DNA of 57,088 bases, counting the filler, from Dugesia japonica (Eukaryota), in NCBI GenBank assembly GCA_001938525.1. It is 5 parts of 5 records of this genome, joined end to end, with 100 filler letters (N's around TTAATTAATTAA, not from the genome) between each part and the next. Parts side by side here need not be neighbours in the genome. Positions count along the whole stretch, not along the records: positions 39,418 to 57,088 come from MQRL01541605.1; 4 more parts are not named here. One strand, 5' to 3'. This document shows, in pieces, positions 52,656 through 57,088 of the stretch; position 1 is the first letter of the stretch, and every line of letters begins with the position of its first letter. The notes beneath the pieces were generated by a model that searched no databases, was not told the DNA's origin, and saw nothing but the letters and a program-made list of their open reading frames with translations. The translations under genes and the position numbers were made by a program.

Positions 52656-52831
52656 ATATTGGGATTCCATCTGTGTGGATTTTATAAAAAATTATAGCTA
52701 GAAGATAAATCAGCCCTCAGGGGATTCCGCAAAGAATTTAACCTGACGTCCCTTGTCAGGCTTTCGGAATAGAGAAGTTGACTCCCAACGCATACTCGGA
52801 GTACAGCTTCACACTCCTTGATTTCGGGTTC
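52656..52831 (-). ncRNA. Unidentified structured motif, copy A
   Basis: Covarying stems relative to copy B (see findings); G.U pairs favour the minus strand. Confidence 0.6.
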
Positions 52832-52895
52832 ACAATTCCCCTTATCACTATGCTCATTAAAAAATAGACAAACATTTTATAATGGAAAATTTTAT

Positions 52896-54729
52896 TTATA
52901 ACACACTTAGCGCCTCATGGTCTAACCATTCGGAGGGCGTGTCGTCCGTAAAATTGAACGAGGCCTCATCATCATCGCTTTTCCAGGTAGTCCAAATTTC
53001 CAATTCTTGATTCGTAGTCAGATCAGCGATGTATTGCTTTAAGAATTTTATTTTATTAAATAATGAATTGTTCGTACGGCTTACGATCTCAATCTGTTTC
53101 TTATTTACGATTTCTATCTTTTTTGTCAAGCAATTTTAGTGGGAAAGATGTAGGAGCAGAGTACGCTCGCATTTATTGGAATATTGCCTTTCTTTAATAA
53201 ATTTTGTTAACAACCTATGGCATTGACGTCGGGAATTTGGTAAACCATATCTGGGCACTAAACAAAAGAAAGTAACAAACATTAAGAATAATTAAAGCAA
53301 TAGGATATTAAATGAATATGATATTTAATAGAACAACTTAGCATCTTTATATGGTACACTTTACTTTATATATTGAGCGGTTTTATCTATCATCAAAGAT
53401 TCCACCGGAATAGGCTTGTGCAGTTCTAATAAATTGGTTATCAGTTTATTTTTACGGTCGTTTCCATACTCGCTCTAGATCGTGCAACATTTTTGTCTCG
53501 AGCTTATATGCTTTACACTGCTGCTTAGAACGATTGGATTTATCTTTTTTTTGCAGCTAATTAGGCCTCTCATTTTCCGTTTAGCCAGGCGGTAGAGGTC
53601 CCAAGTTATGTCTATGTCCTTATTGTCCTCTCTCAATTTTTTATGAGGGACGACAAAACTGGAATGCAAAGTAGACGCTGAAAAATACAATGATAAATGT
53701 TTTTAAAAACTACGCAAATAATTTGAAACAAAAACTCGCCTAATCTACAAAATGCTAAATCAATAATATTTTAAAATTTATATAATTCAGATCGCAGGAA
53801 CGAAAATGAAACGAAACTTGATCAACACATAATTTATTTCTACACACAAAACACATGATGGTTTGATCGGTGATGCCCATAATAATTTTTCCAATCAACC
53901 TCCGGCGTGGCAGGGGGGGAGAAATTTGCGGGTAGTTTGCCCATGCGCCGGCCAATTTCGGTACAGGGTACTGCTCGGCCATATCTAAACGAGGTTAGTA
54001 GTCCGCCTCTGGTTAGTGCAAGTTTCCTCTATTATTCAATATGCCTGCATCCCGCTTAAAGGGGTTCTGAACACGCTTGAATATCATACGGTGGGTTTTT
54101 TCATCCAACGTAAGGGCGCTAACGAGATTCAGTGATTAAAAAGAAAGTCAATAATTATTAACCTTTAAATAAAATCAATTTGAGAAAAGCTAAACAAGGG
54201 GAAGGTGCATATACTCTAAACCTTTATCTATTCACATATAACAGGTTCTGACTACAATAAAGATTTAACTTATGAGTTCAAAGTGGAGGTGGCTTCAATG
54301 GGAACATCTTGGCTAAACATGCAAGGTCCGTTTTGTCCAGATGTTCTAATCTATCTGGGAATAAAAAATGAGAGATCAATTTTCGCTTTCGAGAAGCCGC
54401 ATTTTCTTTACGGATTAGGTGCAATACAGCGTAGATATTTCCAAGCACTACCTTAATTAATAGTTATATAAATCAGGAATTAAAAATATGTGATAGCGCG
54501 GTAGATGGGCCTTTGAAAATCAAATAAATGGATTACTAATAATTATAAAAATCAGGTTGGATGACCCTAATGATCCTGGTGCGATAATACCCATAACTGA
54601 TATGAAAATAACTTGTGGAACAAAATTAATATTACTGCACTTAATAACGCCATTACCACTAGGTTCCACAATTTGATAGAATGCGTCATTTCTTAATCTC
54701 TCAATCTTGTTTTTCTTTAATTTATTCAT
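52896..54729 (-). pseudogene. Decayed multi-exon gene(s) of unknown function
   Basis: Several protein-like frames separated by short AT-rich intron-like gaps with AG acceptors; includes CFVCRNKLC and an acidic C-terminus ending LDHEALSVL*. Confidence 0.45.
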
Positions 54730-54816
54730 AATTTATCAAATTGTTGATATTTGCATTGACGAATCGATTAAACTGATTCCATCAAAACCCCAATGTTCTT
54801 CTTTTATTCATTAATT

Positions 54817-55272
54817 ATGATATCCAATATTAATTACAGAGGTAAACTGTCACAAGAAGTAACAAAGAAACTGGGCTTTCCTTTAGACAAACCATGTCAA
54901 TTCCAAGTAAAGTGAGAGATATACCGTTATATTCTTCAGTACAAAAAATGTAGAATTATGGGTTGTAAGAAACCATTGGAATTGCATGATTTGAACCCTT
55001 ATGATAAAAAAATTTACAATTTCAATCGTTACTAATTGTCGTAAAAATGGAAGTTTCAATAAATCTGTAAAAATTAACAAGAATAGTCAACTGTTAGTTT
55101 AAACCAGAGTTATTTCCAGCTCTTAGACTTTGCAAATATGACTCTTTATATCACTCTTTTACATGTGTTCTCAACAGGAAACCTAGTGATACTTGGACTT
55201 AAAAATTTGTATTTTCAAGGATATGTGAATAATATTACTTCAGATTTGTTTAATTTGCTTGATGAAATTTAG
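54817..55272 (+). pseudogene. Divergent intronless TATA-binding-protein-like gene (core domain only, ~150 codons)
   Basis: Repeat 1 MISNINYRG...YTVIFFSTKKCRIMGCK; repeat 2 FQS..IVVKMEVSINL...FKPELFPALRL...VFSTGNLVILGLK (compare TBP YEPELFPGL...IFVSGKVVLTGAK); stops and frameshifts present. Confidence 0.75.
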
Positions 55273-55432
55273 GAAATTCGCAACACGGATGCAAAACCTT
55301 TACAATTCAATTACAAAAAATGTCAATTTAAATTTAGATATTAAAATTTCAAATAATTAATATGTATTAGGAATATTAATTATTTATTGTAATTAAAAAA
55401 TGAATTCATCAAATAAGGGAAAAATAAAGATA

Positions 55433-56040
55433 ATGGAAAATCAATTAAGTAAAAGAGGTTGGACATTTATTACTTTTATAATTTTATTAAAAAATTTAAT
55501 TAAAGGAATGCTTAAAGACATATTGGCGAAACGATGGATGCTTGATGAAGAAAGAAAACTGATGTTTCCAAACTCTATTGTCAATCAGTACATGGATGCT
55601 GAATTTTGAAAACCTGATTGTATCGGGTGCGCAAAGTTTAGCTTGTATGTTGCCAGAAACACCAGAGTTAATTGAATGAATACAACAATTATTATTATTA
55701 TTATTTATAAAAAATTAATGTATTATTATTTTATTTAATTTTCTTTTTTTAGAATAAGCGTTGGAGAAATTACATGAAAGATTTCCAAAAATACTTCATG
55801 AATATATGCTGTTGATGATGAATGAATATTTTAATCATTTATTGCAGACAAAAGCAATAGACATGTTTCAAGTTATGAAACATTTCATGGTTGAGTTATT
55901 GAAATACACACGCAGACATACAAAAAGAATGAATGTGCCGAGAAATCAAGAATCAAGCAAAGCAATGAAGATATCGATCGTGATGCAGAAGTTCAACGTC
56001 CCTTGGATTTGACTATCATTTATCGTGATCTGAGATCTGA
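55433..56040 (+). pseudogene. Small intron-containing gene of unknown function
   Basis: MENQLSKR|gt..ag|GMLKDILAKRW...; later exon after ttttag ALEKLHERFPKILHEY...; layout resembles 380-670. Confidence 0.4.
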
Positions 56041-56827
56041 CTATGTTTATTTAATAGTGTTTGACATCATTCGATCGTGATTTTTATTTTTATGACTTTT
56101 ATTTTTATCAGTTTTAAATCTTTTAATTTAACATTATTTAATTGTGATTTTGTTTTGTGGTAATATAAAANTTTTATAAATAGAATGATGAATAATTAAA
56201 TATTATAAATAAATAATTGTAAATAATAAAAAAATTTTATAAATAGAATTATGAACAATAAAACTAATTATATAATTTGTGTATAATTTTATGAATTTGT
56301 TGTAAAAATTTAGTCAGAACGTGAAATGATTGACATTTGTATATTTGGTAAATCAGTATAAATACTGATTGGTTTTACTGTGAAATTAGACATTTTCTGA
56401 ACTAAGAAAACCTACTTCTATAGTTGGCTTTTCTTTGATTCTGTAAACTATAGCGTGTAGTCTTATAAATAAAAAATTGAAAAAAGGTTTTGATTTATTT
56501 TTAAATAAGGTCAATACACTTTATCACGTATCTATAATTTTCAATAATATATTTCATATATATATATTATAGTATCGACATACATTCATTTAATATTAAA
56601 ATCAGTTACAATAACGAACCATAAAATCTTTTGTTGAGTTAAATACCCAACATCATCATAGAACTTCAATTGGATTTCCTAATCAATGAAAACAAGAACC
56701 ATTATGAAATTTTAAAAGAAAAATTTTTGAAGATTACTGAAGAATATGAGAAAAAAATGTTGAATGAATAAATATTATATTAATAAATGTTTTATTGGAT
56801 AATTGTTTTCTTGTATTTTTTATAATT

Positions 56828-56994
56828 ATGTTGGGATTCTACCTGAGTTTGAAAAGTGACTGGGGAAAAAACATTCCTCAGGGGAACCCTTTCAAGAATT
56901 TAATCCTACCGTCCCTATGGTAGGCTTTCAGTTTACTGCGGTTGACCTCACTCCTAATGAGAGGTGCCCGCCAGCAAACCTTTGGTTCGGGTTC
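56828..56994 (-). ncRNA. Unidentified structured motif, copy B
   Basis: Stems GAACCC/GGGTTC, GGTTTGCTG/CAGTAAACT, CCTACC/GGTAGG, ATTCT/AGAAT, CCTGAG/CTCAGG. Confidence 0.65.
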
Positions 56995-57088
56995 TATATG
57001 TTTTCCCTAATATTATTTTGTGATAATTAAAACTCTTTGTTATTCTAATCAAAACATTTATTTAACCATAACACATTTATAACAAATC

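Follow-up and report, generated by a model that had tools for sequence, protein, structure and literature searches.

Positions 52.6–57.1 kb of a 57,088-nucleotide stretch of Dugesia japonica DNA (assembly GCA_001938525.1; this whole stretch is hereafter the window) hold a broken gene for a short TBP-like protein, between two structured motifs termed A and B. With a little more confidence than doubt, I read this segment as a patchwork of decayed mobile elements, at its core a broken piece of a Polinton that carried TBP, with the two diverged motifs as likely ends of retrotransposon long terminal repeats (LTRs), and with the short TBP as a likely activator of particle genes at an ATAAAC box in intact Polintons. 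The original prediction, made from the sequence alone, was that of a gene-dense unit of about 4.2 kb, apparently repeated in tandem. The window is AT-rich (16–35% GC per kb), gapped, and holds mobile-element relics throughout.

The TBP-like gene, predicted to be intronless and to encode the core only, is confirmed by Pfam, PDB and alignment to a relative. A 66-amino acid piece, with X at the breaks, matches the Pfam TBP family (PF00352) at E=1.3e-4 and 22.1 bits, below the 22.9 cut-off that 10 of 13 relatives pass, and matches solved TBPs in the PDB at E=5e-7. The closest intact relative, the 150-amino acid protein P0047, is 70% identical and colinear with the window gene from end to end over 453 bases (tblastn E=6e-35), which leaves no room for an intron. 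The window gene, P0047 and P0062 form a clade (support 100/97) in a tree of 44 rows, comprising the 22 closest proteins and 21 locus proteins, in which bootstrap was unsettled and host TBP was not among the rows. The pieces of the gene lie in three frames, with frame changes near 54915, 54946, 55005 and 55149 and stops at 55068 and 55095; because of these four frame changes and two stops, the window copy is, judged from its sequence, dead and cannot act. Word-based homologue searches with the broken piece returned nothing; in the Atlas, P0047 matched TBP clusters only, and scans for DNA around the P0047/P0062 clade likewise found nothing.

A recent retrocopy of the host TBP, one of the objections foreseen to a viral origin, is rejected on three grounds. 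Among 1.84 billion cluster representatives, 13 matches were found, all of the short type and none a canonical TBP; the window protein is just 20–25% identical to the full-length-type TBPs compared; and the second helix of the first lobe is absent. A profile of the family retrieves 349 proteins at E≤1e-20 (the best 120 of which were listed), with a length of about 150 amino acids. The structure check was made on an intact relative, P0005, and not on the window copy: the model (pLDDT 93.6) is the two-lobed TBP saddle, with Foldseek matches to TBP at E=3e-9 and TM 0.6–0.8, and with 44 PDB matches at E≤0.001, of which those listed are all TBP entries. It has no helix in residues 51–65, the site of first-lobe helix 2 in canonical TBP. 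Across 126 family proteins, the linker at this site has a median length of 19 amino acids, compared with 32 in L001, a protein of the full-length type; the second-lobe stirrup, E-x-E-hydrophobic-F, is conserved in 132 of 138 family proteins.

The metagenome scan gave 77 loci, of which six weak, full-length-type ones (L073–L078) were set aside, leaving 71. An ATPase, integrase, penton-like, capsid-like, protease or polymerase gene lies beside the TBP gene in 33 of these 71, and in 17 of the 20 loci of at least 4 kb; these are genes of the virus-like kind that the original prediction had proposed to look for. Pfam searches on 40 proteins of eight loci identified the A32 ATPase, rve integrase, adenovirus-type protease and polymerase B, while penton and capsid genes were labelled from their order and from a profile match to a jelly-roll relic of the window; several hallmark genes occur together in L005, L006, L022, L056 and L059. 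On this gene content the short TBP family is assigned to Polintons. The set shared with Polintons, Mavericks and adintoviruses, as described in the available passages of PMC8502044, comprises the A32-type ATPase, rve integrase, adenovirus-type protease, capsid-like genes and protein-primed polymerase. That paper, in a section on non-animal datasets, labels one or more such elements with a TBP-like gene in its Fig. 5 legend, and a TBP label in a figure legend for Polinton-like viruses also appears in a preprint (10.1101/697771); in the available passages of PMC8502044, however, this is a figure label only, with no family, promoter box or mechanism, and the window holds a fragment. Neither the short TBP family, nor the loss of its helix, nor the ATAAAC box is described in the literature searched, with figures, supplements and Repbase, which may already annotate the gene, outside its scope. 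The word TBP is absent from the available main text of PMC11161782, PMC10748475, PMC11131425, PMC8097293 and 10.64898/2026.06.19.733378. The TBP loci also carry genes for a dual-specificity phosphatase, a ubiquitin-conjugating enzyme, a leucine-rich-repeat protein and a phospholipase A2 domain (L017:4008-4316, L022:225-719, L038:1918-3327, L056:3994-4395).

In the window itself, what is probably the start of a Polinton packaging ATPase gene abuts the TBP gene, on the opposite strand. The original prediction, in which no transposase, reverse transcriptase or capsid was recognised in the unit, missed this hallmark gene; its proposal that the gene belongs to a virus-like element or Polinton module is supported. 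A profile of the ATPase N-terminus has its best match of the whole window here (E=4e-4 with 13 sequences, a subgroup picked afterwards; E=0.09 with all 22). The frame starts at 54729, approximately the first 25 codons are present, and the match breaks off at ~54650. Four DNA runs were used: X1, X2 and X4 come from one organism, and X10 from a second, organism B, with a small share. A contig of X10 tracks the window up to 54650 and then continues with 255 different letters, and depth, taken as contig depth summed at 80% likeness, which is not a copy number, falls at this position from tens of thousands to ~20. The ATPase gene is likewise found upstream of TBP on the opposite strand in L044 and L052. 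Profiles for protein-primed polymerase B, integrase, capsid and protease match nothing inside 52.6–57.1 kb, and on this ground the segment is classed as a fragment that derives from a Polinton and not as one itself. None of 76 profiles of neighbour-gene clusters from the relatives matches the unit at E<0.05 besides the ATPase, bar an antisense shadow of TBP. In L058, a tRNA-like B-box sequence lies just 5′ of the ATPase start (~3490–3530).

Upstream of the start codons in the TBP loci, a box with the core ATAAAC recurs. Counted within 100 bases 5′ of the codon, with near-identical flanks removed, it precedes the ATPase in 21 of 22 cases, capsid in 9 of 9, penton in 11 of 12, integrase in 12 of 14, PLA2 in 7 of 8, gene cluster c12 in 10 of 10 and protease in 3 of 6. 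It is found before TBP itself in 4 of 42, and before c2 in 3 of 18, c6 in 0 of 9, c8 in 0 of 8, c17 in 0 of 7 and polymerase in 1 of 3. Shuffles gave 0.1–2.3 and the antisense strand 0–2, and 62 of 121 sites lie 30–49 bases 5′ of the codon; these counts are not independent, because many loci come from few samples. A second, long-branched subgroup of short TBPs (L056, L059, L062 and related loci), of ~167 amino acids and with a different ATPase type, has the same box.

In TBP, the stirrup glutamates bind TFIIB, and the basic residues of helix 2 bind TFIIA, Mot1, TAF1 and Brf, according to part of PMC7221094. Because the TFIIB-binding stirrup is kept and the regulator-binding helix is absent from the model, the short TBP is likely to be an activator of late genes in intact Polintons. 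It would be made early, from an ordinary promoter, and would bind (T/C)ATAAAC(A/G) some 30–50 bases before late start codons; once bound, it may recruit host TFIIB and RNA polymerase II, while the missing helix would let it escape Mot1, TAF1 and TFIIA. The late, particle-building genes would thereby be switched on at a private box. Of the earlier suggestion that the protein could redirect or decoy host transcription initiation, the decoy role is less likely than this activator role, as the structural genes of the relatives share a private upstream box.

Two viral systems resemble this scheme in part. The TBP mimics of beta- and gammaherpesviruses (ORF24, BcRF1, UL87), which in the sources seen in part act at TATT late promoters, likewise combine a viral TBP-like protein and a non-standard box before late structural genes with host polymerase II; as described there, however, the mimic is large and sits in a six-protein complex, whereas the short Polinton TBP is a bare core of ~150 amino acids that keeps a host-type TFIIB stirrup, with no helper complex seen. 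The TBPs of large DNA viruses share with it the fold and the loss of the first-lobe surface for Mot1, TAF1 and TFIIA (PMC7221094, in part). In these the TFIIB signature has diverged, often alongside a viral TFIIB, whereas the Polinton protein keeps both acidic residues in the great majority of cases (132/138). Its identity to viral matches in BFVD is at most 20%. A bolder version, which I consider improbable, is that a Polinton lineage has been amplified to thousands of transcribed copies in a single animal genome, carries a regulator-proof TBP and a new class of structured RNA, and that its TBP, in cells whose elements escape silencing, runs a second initiation route on host RNA polymerase II at ATAAAC boxes, host promoters included.

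The rest of the segment breaks up by depth, in steps that span three to four orders of magnitude across 52.6–57.1 kb. In X1, X2 and X4, depth is 2,000–7,000 over a decayed Gypsy retrotransposon, which is cut inside its gag at ~52656 and whose depth ends in bin 52508–52684. It is then 80–440 over motif A and the next 350 bases, 13–33 over 53216–54631 (bar one bin at 180–560), 41,000–213,000 over the ATPase start and the TBP gene, 6,000–30,000 over an accessory gene, 280–2,300 over 55871–56578, and 185,000–284,000 over motif B, which reaches 4,400 in organism B. The features are collected in Table 1.

Table 1. Features of the 52.6–57.1 kb segment and of the Gypsy element at its left border (positions count along the window).
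Feature	Position	Strand	Basis and remarks
Broken short TBP-like gene, Polinton family	54817..55272	+	Pfam, PDB, family profile E=4e-16, tree
Probable 5′ end of Polinton A32-type packaging ATPase gene, Walker A damaged	54650..54729	-	N-terminus profile; head-to-head with TBP
Motif A, structured, starts TATTGGGATTC at gag junction	52657..52831		Likely LTR end of a rare subfamily; depth 300–440
Motif B (56829–56994), starts TGTTGGGATTC, with flank to window edge	56829..57088		Likely LTR end of a very abundant subfamily
Decayed Gypsy retrotransposon (gag with CCHC knuckles, reverse transcriptase, RNase H, integrase)	49374..52656	-	Frames recognised by eye; depth 2,000–7,000
Broken small gene(s), no known family	52896..53702	-	AT-rich intron-like gap near 53263–53367; depth 17–560; RNA cover ≤0.5
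Near single-copy stretch, short broken frames on both strands	53750..54649		Depth 13–33 (X1, X2, X4)
Broken accessory gene, three pieces (55433–55675, 55753–55888, 56653–56771)	55433..56771	+	Contig joints; depth 6,000–30,000
Solo-LTR-like nested insert, 764 bp, ends CCCAACA	55889..56652		TCAT duplication at both flanks; depth ~280–2,300

The accessory gene probably belongs to the same element as the TBP gene. Contigs of all four DNA runs skip 55885–56652, the joint 55877>56653 occurring in three of them and 55884>56653 in every one, which marks the 764-bp stretch as a later insert; GTTGAGTTA is present near both its ends. Word-based searches found no relative of the accessory gene, and the Atlas gave no usable match. 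The small genes of the unit had been described as tightly packed on both strands, with short intron-like gaps; support for them is weak, as the frames are broken and 40–80 amino acids long, match nothing in Pfam at E<0.01, and are crossed by no spliced read. Motif A is joined to the 3′ part of the left-hand gene(s) in other copies (three contig records, ~81% alike). Neither the three Gypsy gag frames nor the six frames of 53750–54649 match Pfam; a weak similarity of 53758–53994 to a gene that three nearly identical loci carry between TBP and ATPase (best E=0.006, on the antisense frame, with 15 pieces tried) was judged to be chance.

The two structured motifs are real and homologous, as predicted, with a local alignment score of 79 against a shuffle maximum of 32 (none of 500 shuffles reaches 79), and no third copy was found within the window. 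Three stems can form in both, namely a first helix, a hairpin of 6 bp whose loop is GTCCC, and a third stem; two pairs of the hairpin differ on both sides between A and B, and the third stem has two more such changes. Folding z-scores are modest (A, -2.6 on the plus and -0.8 on the minus strand; B, -1.4 and -1.9) and leave the strand undecided. The likeness reported to extend beyond the motifs is weak: the flanks are in register, with a minus-strand AATAAA 228–234 bases from the motif end in both A and B, but the score is reached by 12 of 500 shuffles and by 23 of 615 window pieces.

The start of motif A coincides with the end of the Gypsy gag frame and of its depth, and where A has TATTGGG at this break in the gag, B starts with TGTTGGG at the matching position, though no contig shows the B junction. 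TGTTGGG occurs 6 times over the 57 kb, both strands counted, and one of these is the end of the nested insert (CCCAACA, its reverse complement). In LTR anatomy, an R-U5 end with small genes further in fits the layout of the minus-strand AATAAA. That the motifs are LTR ends is probable, and I propose two independent insertions of related LTRs, one into the Gypsy gag and one behind the accessory gene; each has a minus-strand poly(A) signal at ~230 bases from its end, with the folded part as the presumed R-U5 leader of the element RNA. The giant Gypsy LTR elements Burro and GYPSM1 of planarians, likened here by description only and from part of PMC6431247, share great abundance and accessory frames and perhaps the TG-type terminus at the motifs; they differ in that a second end, primer site and purine tract are not seen here.

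If the motif and genes were instead one unit of 3.4–4.2 kb copied head-to-tail, the motif may be a processing site or a ribozyme, and the two homologous motifs in the same orientation, 4,172 bases apart, with a sharp junction at the start of A and a flank past B that resembles the flank past A, are what this would produce. The motifs are however just ~60% alike, their flank likeness is marginal, the ATPase is cut in the middle of the supposed unit, and no Rfam ribozyme matches: a search with Rfam 15 gave none at gathering score in the window, and its six weak matches (E 2–10) do not fall on the motifs. By-eye fits to the layouts of the hammerhead, HDV, twister and pistol ribozymes fail on core residues. 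Depth differs more than 1000-fold between the two halves, only ~90 bases are visible beyond motif B, and without the 764-bp insert the unit measures 3.4 kb. Given the depth split and the nested insert, the tandem unit should be dropped unless neighbouring DNA shows otherwise; I hold it very improbable as an account of the segment, and the broader notion of a tandem or ribozyme-headed unit as the nature of the motif to be improbable.

RNA reads on the stretch derive from relatives: in X12, 447 of 558 are less than 90% alike and 2 are at least 99% alike, and most continue unlike the window. The TBP gene and motif B are covered at low depth in all four RNA runs, while the left genes reach at most 0.5; no splice joint is found over the stretch in the reads of these four runs, and the strand signals of X12 and X15 are opposed. 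In X15, five RNA molecules of relatives start at window position 54765 (+), which lies 52 bases 5′ of the TBP start codon and may be a transcription start.

This genome is dense in Polinton DNA. By profile or Pfam, relics lie at 1611–1793 (-), 14715–14918 (+), 28805–29364 (+), 39659–40157 (+) and 45640–46500 (-), with further ones recognised by eye at 21217–21426 and 22841–23116 (+). They include a gene that neighbours TBP in relatives (E=1e-7), another that neighbours the ATPase (E=1e-9), a capsid of the double jelly-roll type (Pfam PF21738, E=2e-10) and pieces of polymerase. Elsewhere, a piece of Penelope-like reverse transcriptase, recognised by eye at 8687–9117, overlaps a 137-nt inverted repeat, and a 252-codon frame with an N gap at 15657–16412 (-) has no Pfam match in the 199 amino acids searched.

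The similar extreme depth of TBP and motif B (ratio 1.3–1.6 in X1, X2 and X4), both of which are also high in organism B, would follow if B were a structured non-coding RNA between two convergent accessory genes of the same Polinton family as TBP, the left half being a piece of a rarer sister Polinton that breaks at A. B begins 58 bases past the stop of the accessory gene, and TBP in relatives is bordered by small genes whose leaders are AT-rich and intron-like. The motif was however not found in 287 kb of TBP-Polinton loci (78 loci; nhmmer and a hairpin descriptor), and its pattern has no match in viral and metagenome contigs; the left genes match no Polinton gene, and the LTR-type TGTTGGG at the A-junction position is left unexplained. 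As an account of the segment this seems to me unlikely, and the simpler proposition that the motifs are part of a Polinton is only slightly less so.

The same depth, more than 1000-fold over single copy, could also be that of a giant, Burro-like Gypsy retrotransposon that took up the ATPase-TBP piece of a Polinton and multiplied it as its cargo. This would explain thousands of copies and poly(A) transcripts, reads of relatives being present in oligo-dT libraries, and Burro elements do occur in thousands of copies with many captured domains (PMC6431247, in part). The B boundary, though, shows neither a primer site nor a purine tract, that review does not name TBP (0 occurrences), and the many other Polinton relics of the window indicate that Polinton DNA can be abundant here unaided; I consider this capture improbable.

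Several observations weigh against the patchwork with a Polinton core that I prefer. For the motifs, no far end with a matching duplication is found for A in the window, where A appears truncated, and B runs off its edge; no primer site or purine tract lies beside B, an absence that fits an outer end or a solo LTR. B and TBP are about equally abundant in the four DNA runs, which suits one element, and here too the depth sums are not copy numbers. For the Polinton core, no intact copy was seen, the ATPase match amounts to 17 residues, its best E-value coming from the subgroup noted above, and the neighbour-gene profiles of the relatives match neither the accessory gene nor the left genes. A hallmark gene is lacking in 38 of the 71 loci, many of them short, and in 3 of the 20 of at least 4 kb. 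Vertebrate Mavericks have a mean of 22 copies and up to 287 (part of PMC8097293), far fewer than the thousands of copies that the depth here would suggest, an abundance that is unusual if all of it is Polinton. For the box, no exact ATAAAC precedes the unit's own genes, the site before its ATPase being one letter off, and scans for TBP-less Polintons, as a control, found none.

The locus in the window is a dead relic, and its value is that of a pointer, to a Polinton lineage with a minimal TBP and a late-promoter box, and to a very abundant structured motif. The TBP and its box bear on the means by which Polintons, with no helper virus, time their particle-gene expression, and would parallel the late-gene switch of herpesviruses in an unrelated virus lineage. 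If true, a natural TBP of 150 amino acids that has the TFIIB contact and is without the regulatory helix would show the smallest core for initiation.

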